A stretch of 42,126 bases of DNA from a virus (Duplodnaviria; Heunggongvirae; Uroviricota; Caudoviricetes), in IMG/VR virus record IMGVR_UViG_2541047766_000003; one strand, given 5' to 3'. Below the pieces are notes generated by a model that saw only the letters and a list, made by a program, of their open reading frames with translations, was not told the origin of the DNA and searched no databases. Both the position numbers and the translations under genes were made by a program. Shown piece by piece: positions 1-37,161 of this stretch. Each line of letters begins with the position of its first letter. The first letter of the stretch is position 1.

Positions 1-516
1 ATGAAATTTAAAAAATGTCTTCTGCCTGTGGCAACGTTAGCGTCATTCACTCTGGCAGGATGCCAGTCAAATGCTGATGATCATGCCGCCGATGTTTATC
101 AAACCGATCAACTGAATACCAAACAAGAAACTAAAACCGTTAATATTATTTCCATTCTTCCCGCAAAAGTTGCCGTAGACAACTCCCAAAATAAACGAAA
201 CGCACAAGCCTTCGGCGCGCTTATTGGTGCAGTCGCTGGCGGTGTTATTGGCCACAACGTCGGGTCTGGCAGCAATTCCGGAACGACGGCAGGTGCAGTT
301 GGCGGCGGAGCTGTTGGCGCGGCAGCGGGTTCTATGGTGAATGATAAAACCTTAGTGGAAGGTGTTTCTTTAACGTATAAGGAAGGCACCAAAGTGTATA
401 CCTCCACCCAGGTGGGTAAAGAGTGCCAGTTTACGACAGGTTTAGCCGTTGTTATTACCACGACGTATAACGAAACGCGTATTCAGCCAAATACGAAATG
501 TCCTGAAAAGAGCTAA
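1..516 (+). CDS. Glycine-zipper lipoprotein (SlyB/YcfJ-like), probably host-encoded
   Basis: ATG at 1; signal peptide with lipobox LAGC; Gly/Ala-rich glycine-zipper stretch (GALIGAVAGGVIGH...). Family assignment from memory. Confidence 0.6.
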   Translation: MKFKKCLLPVATLASFTLAGCQSNADDHAADVYQTDQLNTKQETKTVNIISILPAKVAVDNSQNKRNAQAFGALIGAVAGGVIGHNVGSGSNSGTTAGAVGGGAVGAAAGSMVNDKTLVEGVSLTYKEGTKVYTSTQVGKECQFTTGLAVVITTTYNETRIQPNTKCPEKS

Positions 517-531
517 TGATCAGGAGGAGTC

Positions 532-1071
532 ATGAAGAAAGTTTTTCTTTGCGCCATCTTAGCCTCCTTAAGCTATCCGGCTATCGCCTCATCATTGCAG
601 GATCAACTCTCTGCTGTCGCAGAAGCGGAACAGCAAGGTAAAAATGAAGAGCAAAGGCAGCATGACGAATGGATCGCGGAGCGCAACAGGGAAATCCAGC
701 AAGAGAAGCAACGTCGCGCAAACGCCCAGGCCGCCGCTAACAAAAGAGCGGCAACGGCAGCGGCAAATAAGAAAGCTCGTCAGGATAAACTGGATGCCGA
801 AGCCACTGCGGACAAAAAACGCGATCAAAGTTATGAAGATGAGCTACGCAGCTTAGAGATTCAGAAACAAAAACTGGCGCTGGCGAAAGAAGAAGCCCGC
901 GTTAAGCGCGAAAACGAATTTATCGATCAGGAACTGAAGCACAAAGCTGCGCAAACCGATGTGGTGCAATCTGAAGCTGACGCAAACAGGAATATGACTG
1001 AGGGCGGTCGCGATCTGATGAAAAGCGTGGGCAAAGCAGAAGAGAACAAATCGGACAGCTGGTTTAACTAA
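532..1071 (+). CDS. Secreted Lys/Glu/Ala-rich coiled-coil protein, unknown function
   Basis: RBS caggagg before ATG; N-terminal signal peptide; highly charged low-complexity body. Confidence 0.5.
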   Translation: MKKVFLCAILASLSYPAIASSLQDQLSAVAEAEQQGKNEEQRQHDEWIAERNREIQQEKQRRANAQAAANKRAATAAANKKARQDKLDAEATADKKRDQSYEDELRSLEIQKQKLALAKEEARVKRENEFIDQELKHKAAQTDVVQSEADANRNMTEGGRDLMKSVGKAEENKSDSWFN

Positions 1072-3991: not shown

Positions 3992-4288
3992 TCAAATAGA
4001 GAAATAAACACAAAAACAAAAAACAACAGGAACAGCAAAATCCAACAGACTTCCCACATCCCACACGCGTGGATCAAAACCTCCCCACCACGGCATGTTG
4101 ATACGTTTCCCTTTCCCAAACTTTTCTATCCAGCGATATTCTGCCTGGGTGTGTTCACGCGCAATGAAGAACGTACAACCGGCTATCGCACCGTAAGCCC
4201 AGTTTCCGGTAAAAATACCAACCAGTACCTGAGCCGCAAAAGCGCAAAGCGAGTGAAGAAATGGAGTGACATCAATGCTCTTAATCAT
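3992..4288 (-). CDS. Small membrane protein of unknown function downstream of tailspike
   Basis: ATG overlaps tailspike stop (ATGA); 2-3 hydrophobic helices. Confidence 0.4.
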   Translation of the reverse strand: MIKSIDVTPFLHSLCAFAAQVLVGIFTGNWAYGAIAGCTFFIAREHTQAEYRWIEKFGKGKRINMPWWGGFDPRVWDVGSLLDFAVPVVFCFCVYFSI

Positions 4289-6474
4289 GAAACTTCCCCA
4301 TTGGTTGAAAATATGGCTCCTCCAACGCCAAGTGTATTTCGTGTTGTGCTCAACCTCAGAGGGCTGGAGTCAGAATTAGAATATCCTGTAGCAGAAATAA
4401 AAGATCCTCCACTAATAGTCAACTGCGGAACATCGGCTATATCTGAATAAGTTCTGTCAGCAACAGTATTATTTATAGCCACATATGATCCAAAAAAACT
4501 TCTTATTGTTTGGTTTTTAACTTTACTTCCTTCAATGGTTATCCTACTACCACAGTCGGCAATAAATCCTGAATCTGCATCCAGCGTTGCATTCATAAAA
4601 GAAGCTTCAGATCTCTCTACATCAATCCATCTAATATCTTTTGTGGGATTTGCACCAAATACATGACAAATATTAGAGTTAAACCTTACACCATCTTGGA
4701 GGTGCATTAATTTTTTTATATCTGTACCCCATAGCCTTGGAAAATTAACAGATGCTCCTGCATGGCAATCAAATCCCAGCTCAGCCCCTGAGATATCTAC
4801 AGCCTTTCCTGAAATAACAGCACCAGTGTCTGCATTAACGGCTGTTCCACAATTGCGCATATCATTACCAGCAACATCAACGCAACCCGCACCATCAATA
4901 CGCACACCAAGTGCACATCCATAAAAACCTTTTTCAATATTTGGTTCAAGGACTTTACCACTTGTTTCTGCATCACTTTCTTCAACGTCATGTCGTCTTG
5001 CATCAACATATGCTGTATGAATGCAGGTTAATCCACGATATGAGCAATGTATAGTTTTATGGTCGCGTATATTAACATTTGAACCATCTCTTACATTCCA
5101 TCCTATATAACAATAGCTTGCACTTGACCCCTGAAAATCTGCTTTAACATTATAAATACAATTAACTGACGCAACCGTACTCTCTGTGCACCGTTCAAAC
5201 TTGCTTACAGGCATTGATGCCTTGACATTATTTACCAGTTGCAGGGAAGAGTATCTGCTATAAGAAAAATCACATACGTAATACCCTTCTGGCATATATG
5301 CAGCAACACTTTCCTCATCAGGAGCACATCCGGTATGATATGCACTAATTTTTGCACCAAAACTACCATGAATTCCAACGTAGAACTTTCGAGCACCTGA
5401 ATACGGATAGAAATTAAGTTCAGCTTTTTGAGTTACAATAAATGCACAAACATCGCTATCATCTCTATTTTCTTCGATCTGAATAGCAAATACAGGACTT
5501 TTTGCTGCATCGCAAATGTAAAATAAATACTTGTATTCGTAATACGTTCTAACGATTTTAGTAAACAAACGAGTGTCAGAGAAAACCACTGAGTCTTCTG
5601 ATGTTATTTTAATCCAAGACAAATCAACACCTGAACTGAATTCAATTTGATAGTTGATAATATGCCCGGTCTTAATTCTTATTTCGCAGAAAGCATTACC
5701 ACCATCCCACATAGGCCTCATTGACTGGGCTGCAATGATTGCATCTTTGAGTGTAGGGTAATCACCCCATTCGCCAACAGTAATAACAAAAGTATAATAT
5801 GAGTTAAAAACAGCGGCATTTTTGCCTTTGGATATCAACTCCTTAATCATAAAAATATTATCTTCGTAATCACAAGGAGAAATTATATCCCTCATTTTGC
5901 TTTGAAATGTTCGTTGTCTTGCCCCGCTTCCTGACGGTATAAACCAACCAAAACCACCAACAACCCCGGCGATTGCAGCATCGACATAATTACGCATTGA
6001 GCGATTATTTACAGCGTCCTGCTCAAATGATGGATCTGCAAGGTTAGAAATTTTGTTTTGCTTTGCATCGTAATATTTTGCAAGCAAAGATGGTTTCATC
6101 AATGCACGTCTGAACCACCCAAAACATCGCTGGATCAGCATCGTCAGGTAGTCAAATGCATCTTCATGAACTTCGGGGAAAAATTTTCCCTGATTGCGAA
6201 GATCAGTCTCCTGCACCACATCAAGCACACGCTCTATCGTAATTCGCCAGCCAGCAGCAAGCGGCGACGGGAGAACCACTTCACCGCCACTATAAGTGCC
6301 CGCTCCAGTTACCTTATAACCGGTATCCAGAACCAATTCTGTTACGTTCCCGTTCAGGTCAGACACCTGAACAACCAGGTCGGTTTTTTTGAAAATACGG
6401 AAGGTATACGGAAATGATGTCGTAGCTCCGTTACCAGTGTATTCGTTGTGGTCAACTTCGGTTGAGACCGTCAT
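4285..6474 (-). CDS. Tailspike / tail fiber with conserved N-terminal adaptor domain and beta-helix-like C-terminal receptor-binding domain
   Basis: N-terminus MTVSTEVDHNEYTGNGATTSFPYTFRIF... typical of enterobacterial tailspike N-domains; C-terminal two thirds Gly/Asn/Ser/Cys-rich repetitive and AT-rich. Confidence 0.85.
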   Translation of the reverse strand: MTVSTEVDHNEYTGNGATTSFPYTFRIFKKTDLVVQVSDLNGNVTELVLDTGYKVTGAGTYSGGEVVLPSPLAAGWRITIERVLDVVQETDLRNQGKFFPEVHEDAFDYLTMLIQRCFGWFRRALMKPSLLAKYYDAKQNKISNLADPSFEQDAVNNRSMRNYVDAAIAGVVGGFGWFIPSGSGARQRTFQSKMRDIISPCDYEDNIFMIKELISKGKNAAVFNSYYTFVITVGEWGDYPTLKDAIIAAQSMRPMWDGGNAFCEIRIKTGHIINYQIEFSSGVDLSWIKITSEDSVVFSDTRLFTKIVRTYYEYKYLFYICDAAKSPVFAIQIEENRDDSDVCAFIVTQKAELNFYPYSGARKFYVGIHGSFGAKISAYHTGCAPDEESVAAYMPEGYYVCDFSYSRYSSLQLVNNVKASMPVSKFERCTESTVASVNCIYNVKADFQGSSASYCYIGWNVRDGSNVNIRDHKTIHCSYRGLTCIHTAYVDARRHDVEESDAETSGKVLEPNIEKGFYGCALGVRIDGAGCVDVAGNDMRNCGTAVNADTGAVISGKAVDISGAELGFDCHAGASVNFPRLWGTDIKKLMHLQDGVRFNSNICHVFGANPTKDIRWIDVERSEASFMNATLDADSGFIADCGSRITIEGSKVKNQTIRSFFGSYVAINNTVADRTYSDIADVPQLTISGGSFISATGYSNSDSSPLRLSTTRNTLGVGGAIFSTNGEVS

Positions 6475-6578
6475 GTTAAATCTCCAGATAGTCGCAGCAC
6501 CCGTTGCGCCGCATATCTGGTTATTCTATTACCTGAAAAACCACATATGGATAGAAAGACTATAAATACCAATAGATA

Positions 6579-6593
6579 TTACCTTTCGGGTAA
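6579..6593. promoter_or_regulatory. Operator-like palindrome TTACC-TTTCG-GGTAA
   Basis: Same 15-bp palindrome family as the OL/OR sites; lies in the divergent tailspike / small-gene intergenic region. Confidence 0.5.
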
Positions 6594-6630
6594 TTTGCAA
6601 AACGTGCTGGATAGCAAACAAATTATTTGA

Positions 6631-6650
6631 TACTGTATAAATATACAGTT
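6631..6650 (+). promoter_or_regulatory. LexA (SOS) box
   Basis: tACTGTataaatatACAGtt = CTGT-N8-ACAG with AT-rich spacer, 20 bp before the ATG at 6670. Confidence 0.7.
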
Positions 6651-6669
6651 ATTGCATGGAGAAGATAAG

Positions 6670-6927
6670 ATGCAGCAGTATCACTATCCACTGGAAGACG
6701 GATTTACCGAAAGGATTCACACGCCGGGAGGCGTCAGGTCACTGGTGGAGGGATCGCACTTGATGAAATTACTCCGGGATCTCGATAAGGATGGATTTAA
6801 TGTCGATGGCCCACTTGCCGAACTGACTGCACTGATTAACTACGTCACCAGCTCACAGATGTCTATGCAGGATCTGCAAACACATCTCGACTATTGTGCC
6901 GAACAATTACGAAAACAAACCACATAA
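6670..6927 (+). CDS. Small protein (85 aa) homologous to C-terminal domain of the Bro-N protein; candidate SOS-controlled antirepressor
   Basis: RBS ggagaag then ATG; ...LMKLLRDLDKDGFNVDGPLAELT...DLQTH aligns with the C-terminus of 8075..8770 (...LMNLLNQLQDDGHDVSGAAAELT...DIQTH). Confidence 0.6.
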   Translation: MQQYHYPLEDGFTERIHTPGGVRSLVEGSHLMKLLRDLDKDGFNVDGPLAELTALINYVTSSQMSMQDLQTHLDYCAEQLRKQTT

Positions 6928-6932
6928 AGAAA

Positions 6933-6950
6933 AGGCCGCTAGAGCGGCCT
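6933..6950. terminator. Hairpin terminator between convergent genes
   Basis: aggccgc-taga-gcggcct; T-run follows on the minus strand. Confidence 0.5.
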
Positions 6951-7677
6951 ATCGTTTCGCTTTGTGCTCGTCCCAGCACGTTTTACACCATGCCATTAAG
7001 CCATCCGCATTTTGATTATTAGGGTAAAAGCTGGTTCGTTTTCTGCGGACATTACAAATTGGGCACCACTTCATATGACGTGTATTCTTTGGGCCATCGA
7101 GACACCTTGCACACCACTTAGTCAATCCATCTGGATTTTTTGACGATTTCCTGAACTTCTCATACGGAAGGTTTATTCTGCATCGCAAGCACTGCTTGCT
7201 ACCACTTGAAACTCTGTTAGCTGATTCTTCTTTTGGCGGCGATACAGAAGGTATTCTTGCTGGCTCTGATACTGCCTGAGGTGCTTTTTTAGATGACTGA
7301 GACGATATGTCATCACCAGGGAATCTTCCATGATATGCCGGAGGCGTTGACACTCCAGGTGGAAGCTCAGCTGTAAACGGCTTTGGCTGAATCAGTTGCC
7401 TCTCTTTTGCTAACTCCTGCTGTTTATAATATGTCTGGATTACCGCACTATCATAAGCAGGAGGTGCGGAAATATTAGGCGCATTACCTCCAGTTTTTTG
7501 AAACTGAGTAGAGGTGTGTTCTATCACCTGTGTACGATTAATCGTTATCTCCCCATCTTCGGTCTTTATCGTTTTGTTATGATTAACGACCGTACGATCA
7601 GAGATCTTAGTCTTGTTCTGGTTGATAACGTAAATAATCACCGCAACCACACCAACAACTATCCAGAAAACTTCCAT
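6949..7677 (-). CDS. Membrane-anchored protein with two PPAY motifs and a tandem C-terminal zinc ribbon
   Basis: N-terminal TM helix (VFWIVVGVVAVIIYVI); APPAY and TPPAY; four CxxC pairs (CLRC, CARC, CPIC, CKTC). Confidence 0.6.
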   Translation of the reverse strand: MEVFWIVVGVVAVIIYVINQNKTKISDRTVVNHNKTIKTEDGEITINRTQVIEHTSTQFQKTGGNAPNISAPPAYDSAVIQTYYKQQELAKERQLIQPKPFTAELPPGVSTPPAYHGRFPGDDISSQSSKKAPQAVSEPARIPSVSPPKEESANRVSSGSKQCLRCRINLPYEKFRKSSKNPDGLTKWCARCLDGPKNTRHMKWCPICNVRRKRTSFYPNNQNADGLMAWCKTCWDEHKAKR

Positions 7678-7697: not shown

Positions 7698-7712
7698 TTA
7701 CCTTAAAGGTAA
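7698..7712. promoter_or_regulatory. Operator-like palindrome TTACC-TTAAA-GGTAA overlapping the promoter of 6949..7677
   Basis: 21 bp upstream of the minus-strand start; TTGATC -35-like element upstream on the minus strand. Confidence 0.5.
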
Positions 7713-7790: not shown

Positions 7791-7805
7791 TTACCTTTGC
7801 GGTAA
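7791..7805. promoter_or_regulatory. Operator-like palindrome TTACC-TTTGC-GGTAA with rightward promoter (TTGATT-18 bp-TATCAT)
   Basis: -35/-10-like hexamers immediately precede the palindrome; would transcribe toward the Bro-N gene. Confidence 0.45.
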
Positions 7806-8074
7806 ATTTACATCGCACTCCTCTTGTGTCATAGTAATCGGGCACTGGAAAAATCCAGTGCCGGGATTGGCGTCCCGGATTACTAAAAGGCGCATTCACC
7901 GCGCAAGCGGTTTTTTTATGCGTATAGCACGGCCACATTCGTATTATGGTGGGCTGTGTGGGGGCACCGAAAGGTGCGCCGGGTCCTTTTAGCCGGTTAC
8001 GCCAACCCTGCACAGTTCACCACCAACCGATTGGCGTCGGTAGTGGTGATTAACCAGACTAAAAGGTAACCACT

Positions 8075-8770
8075 ATGACAGCTACAAAAAGCACGTCCAT
8101 TTTTTCTTTCGAATCCCAAGCCGATATACGGGTAATCGTCATTAATGGTGAGCCATGGTTTATCGCTTCAGATGTTTGTCGGGCTATAGGCATAGCAAAC
8201 CATCGAGATGCTGTTCGAAAACTTGATGATGATGAGAAGGGCGTCGCTTCAACCGACACCCCTGGCGGTGAGCAAGAATCGATCATCATCTCCGAGTCAG
8301 GCCTCTACACACTGATCCTCCGCTGCCGCGATGCGGTGACACCAGGCACTATCCCCTACCGCTTTCGTAAATGGGTTACAGGTGAGGTTCTTCCTCAGAT
8401 CCGCCGCACCGGAAGTTACATTAAAAACTCGCTCCCGCAGGAAGAACGCATAAAGATGGTTGCCGACCAGGTAGCCAACGCCACGGCGTCAGCAGTAATG
8501 CAGGCGATGAAGATAGAGAACAAAACCTACAGCGCCCCGCTGAAGCCCGGCTACCGTAGCCTGATTCACTCGCCGTCTGGTGTTCTCGGCCTGACGGAAA
8601 ACTCACTGCTGATGAATCTGCTGAACCAGTTACAGGACGACGGGCACGATGTATCGGGCGCGGCGGCGGAGCTGACCACCATGTTCTGCTACATCGTCGG
8701 TGTGAGCAAATGCCTGCGTGATATCCAGACGCACGCGGAGTACATCAACGACAAAGCAGGGTTCTTCTGA
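8075..8770 (+). CDS. Bro-N domain protein, antirepressor-like
   Basis: N-terminal Bro-N signature (FSFESQADIRVIVINGEPWFIASDVCRAIGIANHRDAVRKLDDDEK); C-terminal domain is paralogous to 6670..6927. Confidence 0.8.
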   Translation: MTATKSTSIFSFESQADIRVIVINGEPWFIASDVCRAIGIANHRDAVRKLDDDEKGVASTDTPGGEQESIIISESGLYTLILRCRDAVTPGTIPYRFRKWVTGEVLPQIRRTGSYIKNSLPQEERIKMVADQVANATASAVMQAMKIENKTYSAPLKPGYRSLIHSPSGVLGLTENSLLMNLLNQLQDDGHDVSGAAAELTTMFCYIVGVSKCLRDIQTHAEYINDKAGFF

Positions 8771-9057: not shown

Positions 9058-9498
9058 TTGAAGTTTAACATTAGAATATCTAATAGTTTTCTACATGGGG
9101 AAAGCAACACCCCTTTCGCTGTAGACGGACCTTTCCTTACTGATGATGAAATAAAAATCATACAAAGTTTTTTAGAGGATGTTGCCAATGGAAGGGCGCT
9201 TGTTGGAAAAAACAAGCCCTCGTGGGTTGATGATAACCATGATAAAATTCCCGGCTCAGACAATTATGAGCAAGAGAATTATTGGCATTATCATTGTGGG
9301 CCAACATGGTATCCAAACACATTTAAGAATTATACCATTAACTTAAATTTCAACCCTGGCGGAAGGCATTCTAATGAATGCATTCATTATGCAAAAAATG
9401 ATAATGAAATTGTCATTGTTGGATTTTCAAGAGAACACATACCTTTCCTTTCATCAGATGGAAACAACAATCCGCTTTTTAATGATGAAGAAGAATAG
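9058..9498 (+). CDS. Hypothetical AT-rich accessory protein (~146 aa), probable TTG start
   Basis: Open frame has no internal Met after the track start at 8917; RBS caggag 5 nt before TTG 9058; AT-rich; acidic C-terminal tail. Confidence 0.45.
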   Translation: MKFNIRISNSFLHGESNTPFAVDGPFLTDDEIKIIQSFLEDVANGRALVGKNKPSWVDDNHDKIPGSDNYEQENYWHYHCGPTWYPNTFKNYTINLNFNPGGRHSNECIHYAKNDNEIVIVGFSREHIPFLSSDGNNNPLFNDEEE

Positions 9499-9518
9499 CC
9501 CGCGCTGCGGGCTTTTTT
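9498..9518 (+). terminator. Rho-independent terminator
   Basis: gcccgc-gct-gcgggc followed by tttttt. Confidence 0.65.
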
Positions 9519-9590
9519 GTGGACGAAACAAAAGTCAGTGCTACACTCATTGACGCCACATTGAGGTGGCTTATAGATGGAAATTTCACA

Positions 9591-9783: not shown

Positions 9784-10080
9784 TCACGTTCCTTTTCTGA
9801 ATGATAGCCGTTCGAAAAATGATGACATTCCACCGCAGACAATAGCAAAGATGATCCCACCAAAGAAGAGAAGGCCAGCCTGCCACCACTCCCACCGCCA
9901 TACATCCACAGCGCCAACCATACCAACAATCGCTCCAACAAATGGAATATAGCTCACGATGAAAGCAATGGGGGCTGCAATTATCCAGTGCAATCCCCAC
10001 CATGATTCAAGCCCAGCCATAATTGCTGCCAACTGAAAAAGACCAACGACGATATAAACAATGAATCCTATAGCTTGCAT
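9784..10080 (-). CDS. Small multi-TM membrane protein
   Basis: Three hydrophobic helices, Trp-rich. Confidence 0.55.
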   Translation of the reverse strand: MQAIGFIVYIVVGLFQLAAIMAGLESWWGLHWIIAAPIAFIVSYIPFVGAIVGMVGAVDVWRWEWWQAGLLFFGGIIFAIVCGGMSSFFERLSFRKGT

Positions 10081-18077: not shown

Positions 18078-20548
18078 CAGAATCCCCCAACAGTAAGGCG
18101 AGGAATAACGGCAAGAACAGACAGCGGCAACGGGTCAAGCTGACGGATTTTTACACGCCCGTTTTTGCCCCAGTTACTGTCCAGTTTCACTTCTACTTTT
18201 CCGGTAGCATCATCAACAGGATCATCGTAGAACTCGAATTCACGCTGTGGATATTCGTACCATTTACCGCCGGGCGTAGTCGCCCAGATGCCGCGACTGG
18301 CATTCACAACCAGAGTAACGGACGGGATCACCTGTTTTTTGTCCAGCAGCGTTTCCTGTCCGTTAATGTTGATATCCAGTGTTTCGAATTCAGCAGTTAT
18401 TGGCAGGCCGATGTGCACAACAGCCCCCGGTGATTCCAGCGTGACGGCACCTCCGGAAACCACTTTTTGTGGTTCCACGTTCGCATCAGAGAGGATGTTT
18501 ACGGTCTGGCCTTCAAGATGAGACAAGCCGCCAAATGTCCGGCGCGCCATCTGCCAGTTCGTGGTGGCCACATTCCTGAGGGATGGCGGGACGTTCCTGT
18601 TAGCACGAACCACTACTGCGGTATTGCTGGTTACAGAAATAATGTCGCAACGTAATTCTTTTGACAATTCATCGCCAGTATCAGGATCAGCTCCGGTATA
18701 AGGGAACTGTAGTTGCGCACCAACATCACTACTGGTGAAGTACGCACCACCAGAAACACTGATTGTATATTCCGCGTGGTAATCCCATTCACCAGAACCA
18801 CCAGTGATGGTCATCGTTCTGTCAGACGTATTTCTTCCATCATAGCTAAGGCCAGAATCAACAAAGAAAGCATCTTCATCGCTGGTAAATAAACGGCTGG
18901 ACAGTCGCTCTATGTATCTCACTGTTTGCCCGTTAACGGTTCGGTTAACGACGAAATACACCGCATCTTCATTGCCTTCGCTGATACTGCATGTGCTTTC
19001 ATATTTCCCGGTACTGGATTGTGGTGCCCATGCAAAAACCTGCTGATCACGCAAATAGGTCATCACCAGTAATTTACCGTCATCACGAATGCAGAAGGCG
19101 CTGGAGTAAGGGACAATAGAGAAGCACCAGTCAACAATGCTGTGCTTCTGAAAAAGATGATTGGCAAGGATAGTAAGGTCGTTCCCCTGATAGCCGTCAA
19201 CATCGAATGAGTAGGCCAGATCACGGACAACACTGCCTTTCTCCTGGACGAACAGAGCAATATTCGCCACGGCAATTGGTGGGACATTGCTCGAGCCATT
19301 TGATCCCTGAGAGCTGAATGCAAATGATGATGGGGTTAATACTTTGTTCTGGTCGCCGGTGATGACGTACTCACCTCCGGAAGTCAGCGCCACCAGCGAA
19401 CCAACATCAATCAGGTGGCGGATCTCATTAACCTGACGCCCGGCATAGGTGTAGATAATTCTGTCGTCATCCTGCGTAGGATTGCTTTTGCCAAAATCCT
19501 TATAATCCCCAGTACGGCTGGCCCAGATAGTCTGAGGGAACGCAGTCGATGCGGCGAAGTAAAGACGTTGTTGATAATAAACAACAGTGCCAGGATAACC
19601 GTTAATACTGTTCCAGGCATATTTAGCCCATTTGTAGCTGGCATTATCCTCGCCAACAACCTGCGAAGGGATATAGGAAATCACCTCGGCAGTTGCAGTA
19701 GTTCCATTTGCAGCAGAGATACGGGCAATGCCAAAACCACTGTGCAGATACTCCCACTCAATGCCGGTATCATCATCACCGGATCCGCCCCAGCCATCCC
19801 ATGATGTGCCTTCTGTATGCGAAGGGCGCAAAGTGCCTGTTTTGCCTGCTGTAACGGCGCGATAGTAGTTACTGTCTGCACGGCGAATATCGCCAATCGA
19901 CGTACTCTTACTGGTTTCCCATACCGGCACAGAATCCACTGCAGGCTGTTCCAGATAGAACAATTTGCCTACCTGCTCCGCGCCAAAAATAGAGGCGCTT
20001 GCCGTTAACGTAATTGTCCCGGTGCTGGCGCTGGCATAAACCGTCACTGACTCGTCAATATTGATATCTTCAAATGGCCCGTTCTTCGTTACCACATCAA
20101 CCAGTTGCCAGTTGTCATGCGCATAGCGGCGCAACTCTTTCGGCGGGTATGCCGGATGAACCAGCGTAAGCACGTCTGCGCTTTGCGTGAATTTAATTCG
20201 GAACAGATCGGCTTCAGTATATGGCGTGGCAATTTCATAAATAACATTGCTGCTGTTCAGCACCAACGCACCATCTTTGATAACGCGCATGTACTGGTGT
20301 CCGAACTCCAGAGCATAGGTCTGAACAGTCGAGAACTGGAACGGGATCAGGCGGCATTTCCGATTTGGGTATTTGGCGGCACCGACAAAACGCGTACCCG
20401 GTCGATTCTCAACGCCGCCATACTGCCGCACGATAAAGTTATCGCACTTGCGCAAAGCCACCTGGTACTTCGCCATGTCGATACGACCGTACAACGACGG
20501 TCCAATCTCACCACCGGCAAAGCTGGGCTGGATCCAACTGATAGCCAT
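18077..20548 (-). CDS. Tail tubular protein B-like (nozzle)
   Basis: 823 aa; N-terminus MAISWIQPSFAGGEIGPSLYGRID resembles gp12-type N-termini; follows the gp11-like gene. Confidence 0.7.
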   Translation of the reverse strand: MAISWIQPSFAGGEIGPSLYGRIDMAKYQVALRKCDNFIVRQYGGVENRPGTRFVGAAKYPNRKCRLIPFQFSTVQTYALEFGHQYMRVIKDGALVLNSSNVIYEIATPYTEADLFRIKFTQSADVLTLVHPAYPPKELRRYAHDNWQLVDVVTKNGPFEDINIDESVTVYASASTGTITLTASASIFGAEQVGKLFYLEQPAVDSVPVWETSKSTSIGDIRRADSNYYRAVTAGKTGTLRPSHTEGTSWDGWGGSGDDDTGIEWEYLHSGFGIARISAANGTTATAEVISYIPSQVVGEDNASYKWAKYAWNSINGYPGTVVYYQQRLYFAASTAFPQTIWASRTGDYKDFGKSNPTQDDDRIIYTYAGRQVNEIRHLIDVGSLVALTSGGEYVITGDQNKVLTPSSFAFSSQGSNGSSNVPPIAVANIALFVQEKGSVVRDLAYSFDVDGYQGNDLTILANHLFQKHSIVDWCFSIVPYSSAFCIRDDGKLLVMTYLRDQQVFAWAPQSSTGKYESTCSISEGNEDAVYFVVNRTVNGQTVRYIERLSSRLFTSDEDAFFVDSGLSYDGRNTSDRTMTITGGSGEWDYHAEYTISVSGGAYFTSSDVGAQLQFPYTGADPDTGDELSKELRCDIISVTSNTAVVVRANRNVPPSLRNVATTNWQMARRTFGGLSHLEGQTVNILSDANVEPQKVVSGGAVTLESPGAVVHIGLPITAEFETLDININGQETLLDKKQVIPSVTLVVNASRGIWATTPGGKWYEYPQREFEFYDDPVDDATGKVEVKLDSNWGKNGRVKIRQLDPLPLSVLAVIPRLTVGGF

Positions 20549-22310: not shown

Positions 22311-22361
22311 CTTCTTTCTCCATTAGTGGGTCTGTTACGACCCACAGGTTAATAACAGGCG

Positions 22362-34093: not shown

Positions 34094-34879
34094 TTACTTG
34101 ATAAATCCTGCCGCCTTTCCCCGCCTGTATTCCTCCATCAGCCACTGCGCCGGTGTTATTCCCCCAAGGGTGGCGGCGTTAGGCATGCACCCGAAACTTC
34201 GCCCTGGTGGATGGTAAACGTCTCTCCCTGTGTCCGGAGGCGTACTCATGGGTTCTGGCTTTGCCTGTATGCTGATCACCGGATCCGGTATCTGCTGTCC
34301 GGAAGCCACCTTTTTCGCCCAATCATCGAGCAGCCTGCGCGCGTGTTTCTCAACCTCAATCTCGCTAAGCTGGCGCTGATACATTGCACGGCGGGTATCA
34401 CATACGACCCAGTACATAACCGGATGTCGCCACGGGAATCTTTCGGGACCACCAGGATATAAACTTTTTTCCTTGCTGTACCTGTGAAACTCCGCCATCA
34501 CATCGTCAATGGTGACGCCAAGAACCATCTTGCTGTCTTTGCACCACTTGATAAATTGCCCTGGAGACGGCCAGAACGGAGATTCACTGGCGCGGGCGTG
34601 GCGCATACCAGCAGAAACCTGTTCACGGGTTCGGATCCCCCCTTCGGCAAACGCAGCAATCCACTGCTGTTTTGCAGCAACTTCCTGCTCTGGCGTCTTC
34701 AGGTTGGTTACCACTGCCGCCGGAAACAGTTGTTTCAGCTGTTTGAAAAGGGCATCAACAAGCCTCTCTGCTGACATGTTCACCACGTTGTCATTGTTGG
34801 TGTACTGATGCTCATAACCTGACATGCGAGAAAGGGCTTCTCCGTCACGGTTTTGTATCGCGGTAAAAACGTTGTTCAC
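34094..34879 (-). CDS. Replication protein P-like (helicase loader)
   Basis: ...REQVSAGMRHARASESPFWPSPGQFIKWCKD aligns with lambda P (EQVNAGMRVARRQNRPFLPSPGQFVAWCRE, from memory); GTG start after RBS ggagga. Confidence 0.75.
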   Translation of the reverse strand: MNNVFTAIQNRDGEALSRMSGYEHQYTNNDNVVNMSAERLVDALFKQLKQLFPAAVVTNLKTPEQEVAAKQQWIAAFAEGGIRTREQVSAGMRHARASESPFWPSPGQFIKWCKDSKMVLGVTIDDVMAEFHRYSKEKSLYPGGPERFPWRHPVMYWVVCDTRRAMYQRQLSEIEVEKHARRLLDDWAKKVASGQQIPDPVISIQAKPEPMSTPPDTGRDVYHPPGRSFGCMPNAATLGGITPAQWLMEEYRRGKAAGFIK

Positions 34880-35987: not shown

Positions 35988-36002
35988 TTACCTTTGAGGT
36001 AC
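35988..36002. promoter_or_regulatory. Operator-like palindrome TTACC-TTTGA-GGTAC (imperfect)
   Basis: Lies between a hairpin terminator (gaccgcc-gggt-ggcggtc, ~36012..36031) and the next gene. Confidence 0.35.
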
Positions 36003-36057: not shown

Positions 36058-36288
36058 TCATGAGTAGAAGAAGTATGCCAGTTCTGCTTTTGAGCGCAGC
36101 CATTGTCTTGTTTTACAGGCTTTAAAAAGCCCATTCATCAATACTTTACCTGGCATTTTGCGCTTACCTGTTAAGTGAGTCTGGATATAATGACTCGTCG
36201 TTCCGGCTTCCTGTGCGAAGGCTTCACGCTCATCCGGAGTAAGTGCAAGCCAGTGCTTTTTGAAATCGAAATGTCCGTTATCGCTCAT
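36058..36288 (-). CDS. Cro-like HTH regulator
   Basis: Divergent from the repressor; HTH segment EAFAQEAGTTSHYIQTHLTG. Confidence 0.6.
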   Translation of the reverse strand: MSDNGHFDFKKHWLALTPDEREAFAQEAGTTSHYIQTHLTGKRKMPGKVLMNGLFKACKTRQWLRSKAELAYFFYS

Positions 36289-36324: not shown

Positions 36325-36387
36325 TCACCCATAAGGTAACAAAAATCAAGGATAGTTACCTATGGGGTGCATTTACCTATTGGGTAA
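36325..36387. promoter_or_regulatory. OR-like tripartite operator
   Basis: Three palindromes: tCACC-CATAA-GGTAA (36325..36339), TTACC-TATGG-GGTgc (36356..36370), TTACC-TATTG-GGTAA (36373..36387). Confidence 0.6.
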
Positions 36388-36442: not shown

Positions 36443-37027
36443 ATGAAAAGTATCCAGGACGTCCGCAGGCAAAATCTCAACGACTTGATCGACCGTGAAT
36501 TCAATGGTGTTCAGACGCGGATGGCTGAAAAACTTGGAACTCAGGCAAATCTGGTAAACCGCTGGGCTCTTGGCAAGAAGGTTATCGGCGACCAGGTTGC
36601 GCGAAAAATTGAAGCTGCCGCCAATAAACCCCGTAACTGGCTTGATATCGATCGCTCGCTTTCTCAGGAAGGTTTTCAGCCTGTCGGCCCAAGCGACATT
36701 GGTCAGCTGGCGGCTCACAACCTGGAACGCTGGATGAGCGAAAGCCGCGACCTTTCAACACAGGGAAAACTTCACCGCGCATCCGGCGTCGCCCAGGTGA
36801 CAATCAGCCGCCTGTTAAACAATGAGGTCAGCGTTTCCATTTCCACCCTGGAGAATGTTGCATCTGCATTCGGGCGTCACGGATATGAACTACTGATTCA
36901 CCCGCACGACCCTGCAACTATCAACTATGACCGCTCGCGCTACGCATTGTTACCTGAAACCGAGAAAGCAAAGATCGAAAGTTACATTGAATTTGTCATC
37001 AACCAGAACGAAAAAAACAAACAATAA
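36443..37027 (+). CDS. Prophage repressor, dual-HTH, without LexA-like peptidase domain
   Basis: Position between the divergent cro-like gene and the pL-side operon; two HTH-like segments; no Ala-Gly/Ser-Lys S24 signature. Confidence 0.7.
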   Translation: MKSIQDVRRQNLNDLIDREFNGVQTRMAEKLGTQANLVNRWALGKKVIGDQVARKIEAAANKPRNWLDIDRSLSQEGFQPVGPSDIGQLAAHNLERWMSESRDLSTQGKLHRASGVAQVTISRLLNNEVSVSISTLENVASAFGRHGYELLIHPHDPATINYDRSRYALLPETEKAKIESYIEFVINQNEKNKQ

Positions 37028-37084: not shown

Positions 37085-37161
37085 TTACCTAATGGGTAAT
37101 TTTTTTAACTCATATCTATTGACATCAAACCAAATACGCATAATTATTACCTAAACGGTAA
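37085..37161 (+). promoter_or_regulatory. OL-like operators and pL-like promoter
   Basis: TTACC-TAATG-GGTAA (37085..37099), TTGACA at 37119..37124, TTACC-TAAAC-GGTAA (37147..37161) overlapping the -10/+1 region. Confidence 0.55.

Follow-up and report, generated by a model that had tools for sequence, protein, structure and literature searches.

The antirepression switch of phage SPC32H, built from the antirepressor Ant, the repressor Rep and the host protein LexA, is reportedly the one treated in Kim & Ryu 2013 (J Virol 87:11775) and Kim et al. 2016 (PNAS 113:E2480). In two accounts, LexA control, the binding of Ant to Rep and the structure of the complex are given as established for this phage (PMC7380047, PMC9638917; PDB 5D50). 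LexA cleavage driven by the SOS response permits the synthesis of Ant, which blocks the repressor by protein-protein interaction (PMC7380047); SPC32H Rep contacts DNA in tetrameric form, and this tetramer is broken when an Ant tetramer engages two dimers of Rep (PMC9638917; cf. bioRxiv 10.1101/2025.11.27.690993). Here we compare with this switch a locus from a stretch of viral DNA of 42,126 nucleotides (nt; IMG/VR record IMGVR_UViG_2541047766_000003, taken at its full length and called the window below), in which a small gene, ant, follows a LexA box. The comparison makes it very probable that LexA represses ant, that the SOS response relieves this repression, and that Ant then inactivates the resident repressor, itself predicted to be non-cleavable.

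The core of this finding is already known, in that genetics, biochemistry and structural work have described the switch in another phage of this genus. The general logic, with a non-cleavable repressor and a LexA-controlled antirepressor encoded outside the immunity region, is also that of GfoA, GftA and GfhA of the Gifsy phages, Tum of phage 186 and AntC of phage N15, according to one source (PMC3121763).

The ant gene and its control region

On gene order and nucleotide identity, the window is a phiV10/epsilon15-like (Uetakevirus) podovirus prophage of E. coli. Around the ant locus it is 96-99% identical to Escherichia phages phiV10, TL-2011b, vB_EcoP_ZX5 and others, and gene order over the whole window tracks that of phiV10 (genus Uetakevirus, the epsilon15-like podoviruses).

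The gene ant (6670-6927, plus strand) consists of 85 codons and a stop, and its predicted product is an antirepressor orthologous to SPC32H Ant. When this protein was compared with the PDB by phmmer, one sequence was matched, chain E of 5D50, 'Anti-repressor protein' (E 1.3e-47, residues 2-85); by tblastn it is 88% identical to the SPC32H product, which is annotated 'ant' in GenBank. The genes are syntenic as well, since ant, like SPC32H_020, has the tailspike gene on one side and the structural operon on the other, and the order tailspike (minus), ant (plus) is the same in both phages. A tblastn search of 50,697 phage records with Ant matched 35, all of them Uetakevirus-like, and neither this search nor a profile search detected a sequence relation outside the Uetakevirus-like phages. 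A Pfam scan of Ant found no DinI or other domain; a match to DUF724 (E 0.004, 17.6 bits; cut-off 38.4) was dismissed as chance.

These searches also bear on the suggestion, made in the initial annotation, that the locus fits the induction logic of the Gifsy/Fels prophages. The logic stands, being supported by orthology to the SPC32H switch, but the phage is not of the Gifsy/Fels kind and no sequence relation was found: membership of that group was ruled out, the window being a phiV10/epsilon15-like podovirus and Ant having no detectable similarity beyond that group. The antirepressors of Gifsy, 186 and N15 come from a different phage type and show no detectable similarity to Ant (N15 was in the tblastn collection and was not matched; the Gifsy sequences were not directly compared). 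The relation of Ant to the Gifsy, Fels, 186 and N15 antirepressors is therefore one of functional analogy, not homology, and where a review calls Ant 'homologous' to Tum (PMC7380047), the word has a functional sense and not one based on sequence.

Just before the 85-codon gene, where a near-consensus LexA box had been noted, the sequence TACTGTATAAATATACAGTT (6631-6650, no strand assigned) scores 18/20 against the E. coli consensus of 20 nt, TACTGTATATATATACAGTA, and has both CTGT/ACAG arms intact; the ant ATG at 6670 follows 19 nt past the end of the box, and both the box and its placement in the initial annotation are thus upheld. Within three mismatches of the consensus it is the sole site on either strand of the 42-kb window, and no such site appeared in 100 dinucleotide-preserving shuffles of the window (0 expected). 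The looser pattern CTGT-N8-ACAG has three matches in the window against 0.44 expected; the two other than the ant box (at 22332 and 26874) were set aside, as they have more than three mismatches from the LexA consensus and G+C-rich spacers.

The box is also conserved in the manner of a binding site. It occupies the same alignment columns as the SPC32H box, and six Uetakeviruses (the window prophage, phiV10, SPC32H, epsilon15, Enterobacter phage Tyrion and BUCT554) retain the CTGT/ACAG arms and put the ATG at the same 19 nt, with an 8-nt spacer that varies; fixed arms around a varying spacer are the pattern that would be expected of a functional protein-binding site. Between box and gene, the putative Shine-Dalgarno sequence GGAGAA (6658-6663, plus strand) ends 6 nt before the ATG and is invariant in an alignment of the window, SPC32H, phiV10 and TL-2011b. 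SPC32H and its variant SPC32N differ at just two positions in the compared stretch (19600-20200), and one of these, G19960T, lies inside the CTG of the LexA box. This agrees with Kim & Ryu 2013, where a point mutation of the LexA site is reported to make Ant constitutive and the phage lytic.

The box is altered in some relatives. The Klebsiella phages BUCT711 (L011) and Kp4865-1 (L012) have ATATGTATATATATACAGTA as their ant box, some 40-20 nt upstream of the ATG at 1495, with ATGT in place of CTGT as the left arm; the more distant prophage L007 also has ATGT in the left arm (about 9560-9580). The change affects the same arm whose CTG carries the SPC32N difference, and the Klebsiella/L007 sub-lineage may have a weaker or altered LexA control.

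Upstream of the box lies a conserved block, TGCTGGATAG (6605-6614, plus strand), which contains a candidate -35 region (TGGATA) placed 17 nt before TACTGT. The block is invariant in the window, SPC32H, phiV10 and TL-2011b and conserved in epsilon15, Tyrion and BUCT554. Our best guess is that TGGATA-17-TACTGT is the ant promoter, in which case the box would cover the -10 region; the pair scores 7/12 against the sigma-70 consensus, below what the promoter scan detects. Several hand-fitted pairs of promoter hexamers were considered, and TGGATA-17-TACTGT alone is conserved across genomes.

The repressor and its putative operators

The presumed target of Ant is the prophage repressor encoded by rep (36443-37027, plus strand), a protein of 194 residues with two helix-turn-helix (HTH) type domains. 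In the PDB it matches 5D50_A, 'Repressor' (E 4e-42), and 5D4Z_A (E 4e-20), and against SPC32H Rep, whose gene is annotated rep, it shows 42% identity along the whole length (196 residues, E 2e-53). The earlier remark that the repressor has no LexA-like cleavage domain is borne out by Pfam, where Rep matches solely HTH-type families (HTH_3, HTH_26 and similar), with no Peptidase_S24 at E<=0.1. On the prophage map 29.5 kb separate ant (6670) from rep (36443), and ant lies outside the immunity region.

The window has 14 copies of an inverted repeat, TTACC-N5-GGTAA (at most one mismatch), where 0.83 would be expected. These operator-like sites, each of 15 nt, start at 6579, 7698, 7791, 8843, 26345, 29487, 29505, 33980, 34042, 35988, 36325, 36373, 37085 and 37147. 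Five of the 14 flank rep, with those at 35988, 36325 and 36373 on the cro side and those at 37085 and 37147 on the other; the sites away from rep stand at the starts of transcription units. Between rep and a divergent cro-like gene (36058-36288, minus strand) there are two (36325-36339 and 36373-36387), an arrangement found again in SPC32H (34390-34451) and phiV10, and a further two (37085-37099 and 37147-37161) lie downstream of rep, before the early recombination operon. The same motif clusters in the same way around rep in SPC32H and phiV10, that is, in all three genomes examined, and the sites are probably Rep operators.

One of them (6579-6593, no strand assigned) is situated upstream of the LexA box, at 37 nt. 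This site, at near-constant spacing from the box, is conserved ahead of ant in phages SPC32H, epsilon15, Tyrion, BUCT554 and phiV10 as well as in the Klebsiella phages, and in epsilon15 the matching site, upstream of the Ant orthologue gp19, carries the RefSeq feature 'protein_bind: repressor'. Rep presumably binds at this site, which may make ant sensitive to Rep as well as to LexA, or may serve the divergent tail-fibre gene; no leftward tail-fibre promoter overlapping 6579-6593 was found.

The proposed switch and competing readings

In every respect in which sequence can be compared, the locus resembles a switch of the SPC32H type. The two phages belong to one genus; besides the closely similar Ant, they share homology over the full length of Rep, a Rep that is non-cleavable by domain content, an aligned LexA box 19 nt ahead of the ATG, an ant gene between tailspike gene and structural operon, and the same operator motif. 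The window prophage differs from SPC32H in its host, E. coli, in a Rep that is 42% identical, and in an insert of about 3.3 kb past ant, which holds a gene for a 242-residue membrane/zinc-finger protein, a cassette of isrK, C4 and a Bro-N::Ant-like gene, and further small genes.

By analogy with SPC32H, we hypothesize that in the lysogen host LexA would occupy the box at 6631-6650, overlapping the ant promoter, and keep ant silent. Upon DNA damage, active RecA would induce the self-cleavage of LexA, and ant would be transcribed; Ant, a tetramer in SPC32H, would then bind Rep, which has no autocleavage domain, and split the DNA-binding Rep tetramer into dimers. Rep would thereby be released from the ATTACC-N5-GGTAAT operators around the immunity region, and the lytic genes would be turned on.

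Within the analysis, the basis of this scheme is the orthology of Ant, Rep and the box, together with synteny and conservation; LexA binding, SOS induction and the Ant-Rep interaction are what we infer from it for the window prophage. Several points weigh against the scheme. The main uncertainty is that Rep is 42% and Ant 88% identical to the SPC32H proteins, so that retention of the Ant-Rep interface has to be assumed. The evidence for the window prophage comes from sequence comparison. The consensus scan found no strong sigma-70 promoter (>=9/12) on either strand between 6475 and 6670, and the exact overlap of the box with the promoter is presumed. The ATGT left arm in the Klebsiella relatives and L007 means that LexA control may not be family-wide, and a second Ant-like domain is encoded next door, so Ant need not be the sole route to induction.

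This second domain belongs to a larger protein of 231 residues (8075-8770, plus strand), with a Bro-N domain at residues 17-107 (Pfam, E 2e-21) and an Ant-like domain at residues 150-226 (nt 8522-8752). The initial annotation had aligned the 85-residue product with the C-terminus of this protein, and pairwise BLASTP agrees: 31 of 74 positions are identical (42%; residues 150-223 of the Bro-N protein, E 2e-15), and the alignment takes in the LM.LL, DG, AEL and D(L/I)QTH blocks that had been named. The paralogue would be wired otherwise than ant, with a Rep-operator-like site at its promoter and a C4 antisense RNA acting on its ribosome-binding site.

The presence of two Ant-like proteins allows other assignments of function. 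That Ant is conserved far more (88%) than Rep (42%) between the window prophage and SPC32H, and that two anciently diverged Ant-like clades occur together in one phage, would suit a scheme in which the main target of Ant is the repressors of co-resident prophages, in trans crosstalk of the Gifsy/Fels-1 kind, while the Bro-N::Ant-like paralogue would deal with the resident Rep, or the other way round. Salmonella antirepressors do act on non-cognate repressors, and one of them, FsoA, answers to a phage repressor and not to LexA (PMC3121763). We consider such a scheme unlikely: in SPC32H, where the small Ant is alone, Ant acts on its own Rep and the complex of the two has been crystallised, and the Ant-like family is confined to Uetakevirus-like prophages, so the likely targets are Rep-family repressors. 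The crystallised complex, being one of Ant with Rep, tells equally against the proposal that the small Ant works through its paralogue, assembling with the Ant-like domain of this Bro-N protein into mixed oligomers that modulate, activate or titrate the larger antirepressor. SPC32H and epsilon15 carry the small gene alone, without the large paralogue, yet retain both ant and the LexA box, and the ancient divergence of the two clades argues against obligate co-assembly. Mixed oligomers are therefore quite improbable, even though the two proteins share a domain with 42% identity and conserved core positions, the adjacency of ant and the fusion gene is conserved in three divergent prophages, and Ant is reported as a tetramer (PMC9638917).

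A last alternative concerns the box itself, which lies within a 195-bp intergenic region shared with the divergent tail-fibre gene (4285-6474, minus strand), in which no strong promoter was detected on either strand. It is scarcely credible that the box is fortuitous, with zero sites expected by chance, or that it serves the tail-fibre gene and not ant, as the 19 nt that separate it from the ant ATG do not vary (the tail-fibre start is some 157 nt from the box) and its arms are conserved around a variable spacer. The SPC32N difference falls in the same box and has reportedly been tied to Ant expression. LexA-controlled inactivation of the resident Rep by Ant is thus the reading that we prefer.

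The Bro-N paralogue, the Ant-like module and neighbouring genes

Besides its relation to Ant, the Bro-N protein matches 5D50_E directly through its C-terminus (E 1.9e-13), and the full Bro-N::Ant-like protein matches PHROG 'anti-repressor Ant' families and phrog_450; no third Ant-like copy was found in the window. Its gene is preceded by a cassette comparable to P1 immI (c4-icd-ant), the N15 anti-immunity locus and isrK-orf45-anrP of Gifsy-1, a likeness that concerns the Bro-N paralogue and not the small ant. In Gifsy-1 the downstream gene of the cassette is an antirepressor fed by read-through of the isrK terminator, according to one report (PMC4825925).

The cassette of the window, all on the plus strand, begins with an operator-like site (7791-7805, no strand assigned) that abuts the -35 element of a promoter-like site, TTTACA-17-CATAGT with a TG (7807-7835), and the same juxtaposition of operator and -35 (GGTAA-A/G-TTTACA) is repeated in the prophages L006 and L007. 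Transcription is predicted to start near 7842, which fits the Rfam isrK match beginning there. This match (7842-7917, 76.7 bits against a gathering threshold of 50) marks an isrK-like small RNA with its own terminator, equivalent to the a1/b1 decoy targets of C4; a c4-a1b1 target element is recognised at 7829-7881 (Rfam, 39.5 bits), and the a1 (7883-7890) and b1 (7867-7873) sites are complementary to the C4 loops. The predicted C4 antisense RNA itself follows at 7942-8027 (Rfam C4, 77.7 bits against a gathering threshold of 45, E 1e-15), and beyond it lie its targets b2 (8031-8037) and a2 (8059-8066), with exact complementarity to C4 positions 7999-8005 and 7985-7992. The loops of C4, CCUUUUAG and ACGCCAA, are thus exactly complementary to both the upstream and the downstream pair of sites. 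The a2 site covers the Shine-Dalgarno sequence of the Bro-N gene (ATG at 8075), and the Bro-N leader is predicted to be strongly structured (z = -5.97).

In these features, namely a C4 RNA with a1/b1 and a2/b2 targets, an isrK-like small RNA, a terminator read-through architecture and a repressor-operator-like site at the promoter, the cassette resembles those of P1, N15 and Gifsy-1, and the isrK-C4 RNA cassette is common to many Stx phages and APSE at 70-80% identity. Unlike P1 immI it has no icd-like open reading frame (ORF), and a2 lies directly on the Bro-N Shine-Dalgarno sequence. No icd-like ORF was found to overlap the ATG at 8075, and a TAA at 8067-8069 blocks the frame that holds the overlapping TGA. 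The N-terminal part of the Bro-N protein is 44% identical to N15 gp30/31; its C-terminal effector domain is of the SPC32H Ant type, as against KilAC/ANT in the P1/N15/Gifsy-1 group. On these grounds the Bro-N protein is predicted to be a second antirepressor, RNA-controlled like P1 Ant and Gifsy-1 AnrP. A 35-codon ORF (7946-8053) inside the C4 RNA, at the place of Gifsy-1 'orf45', stops 22 nt before the Bro-N ATG and does not overlap it. A weak match to a Trp leader at 9414-9520 (21.5 bits against 41) was dismissed.

The Ant-like domain recurs elsewhere as a module. A profile built from Ant and the C-terminus of the Bro-N protein found 60 cluster representatives among 1.84 billion, in which the domain is either stand-alone (about 85 residues) or C-terminal, behind Bro-N (P0124, P0145, P0174), AntA (P0122) or Rha (P0131, P0173). 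In other Uetakevirus-like prophages this locus holds the fusions with an AntA or a Rha head, and three divergent prophages keep the adjacency; the shared layout runs from a tail-fibre gene (minus) through the small ant (plus) and isrK-C4 to a gene for an Ant-like domain fused to one or another head (plus), with an operator-like site at the -35 element. Across phages the stand-alone and fused domains form separate clades, and the duplication behind ant and the Bro-N gene must therefore be old; a recent duplication of ant from the Bro-N gene was ruled out on the same ground. The Ant-like domain of the window Bro-N protein (8492-8767) is nearly identical to that of the AntA-headed P0122, encoded at the same locus of another E. 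coli prophage (L006, 10001-10651), and nearly identical C-terminal domains under AntA and Bro-N heads point to a recent swap of the N-terminal head. In L007, the gene call for the Rha-headed P0131 (10001-10960, 319 residues) crosses isrK (10003-10080) and C4 (10103-10189); since the Rha domain begins only at residue 100, the N-terminal 90 or so residues are probably mis-annotated.

Taken together, the two genes might form a two-input circuit built from one rare repressor-binding domain, in which a LexA-controlled Ant is paired with an Ant-like fusion (headed by Bro-N, AntA or Rha) under the control of a Rep operator and C4/isrK, and in which the conserved operator upstream of the LexA box makes ant itself Rep-sensitive. 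We offer this proposal, for Uetakevirus-like prophages of E. coli and relatives, tentatively and as rather doubtful. If it were true, the first Ant made after LexA cleavage would clear Rep from both promoters, a positive feedback that would lock the switch, and the C-terminal, not the N-terminal, module of the Bro-N, AntA and Rha 'antirepressors' would be the effector that binds the repressor. Should the Ant-like domain bind the repressor, it would give a handle on the C-terminal halves of these very common and poorly understood 'antirepressors', and the combination of an SOS-controlled copy with one controlled by RNA and repressor would offer a tractable model of how prophage induction responds to several inputs. 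In the limited literature searched, we found nothing linking SPC32H Ant to Bro-N-type proteins, and no description of the Ant domain as a shuffled C-terminal module, of a conserved pairing of SOS-controlled and C4/Rep-controlled copies, or of a conserved operator beside the LexA box; the module, the pairing and the operator are incremental additions to what is known.

The practical value of the analysis lies in annotation, where it exposes a gap in gene labelling and does not amount to a discovery. The ant locus (window 6480-6960) is present at at least 90% identity in 531 of 5,426 complete E. coli genomes, and the ant gene was found in all E. coli phage records retrieved; in every record among the matches listed it is annotated 'hypothetical protein'. 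PHROG 450, which includes ant, is labelled 'unknown function', though the orthologue has a crystal structure.

Along the window, lysis genes are followed by the tail-fibre gene, the ant/Bro-N locus and a long structural operon on the minus strand, and then by the terminase, the replication genes, the immunity region near 36 kb, the recombination genes and, at the right end, the integrase. Just past ant, a G+C-rich hairpin, AGGCCGCTCTAGCGGCCT (6933-6950, no strand assigned), was picked up in a terminator scan as a likely terminator between the convergent ant and 242-codon genes; in epsilon15, a rho-independent terminator is annotated just past gp19. The 242-codon gene (6949-7677, minus strand) is an insertion separating ant from the Bro-N cassette that SPC32H and epsilon15 do not have. 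Its product, a member of phrog_6762 (unknown function), has an N-terminal transmembrane helix, a Cys-rich C-terminus and weak matches to Stc1 and endonuclease-VII-like zinc fingers. The start of the gene has an operator-like site (7698-7712) just upstream. At the other side of the locus, the first 1.1 kb or so of the window (1-1071) is filled by host genes, for a Gly-zipper lipoprotein-like protein of 171 residues and a DUF5384 protein of 179 residues. In L006 the related prophage is flanked by the same two host neighbours, which stand there beside ppx and a MASE1-EAL gene, and because this gene pair is shared with the L006 flank, the left end of the prophage is placed between about 1100 and 1950.

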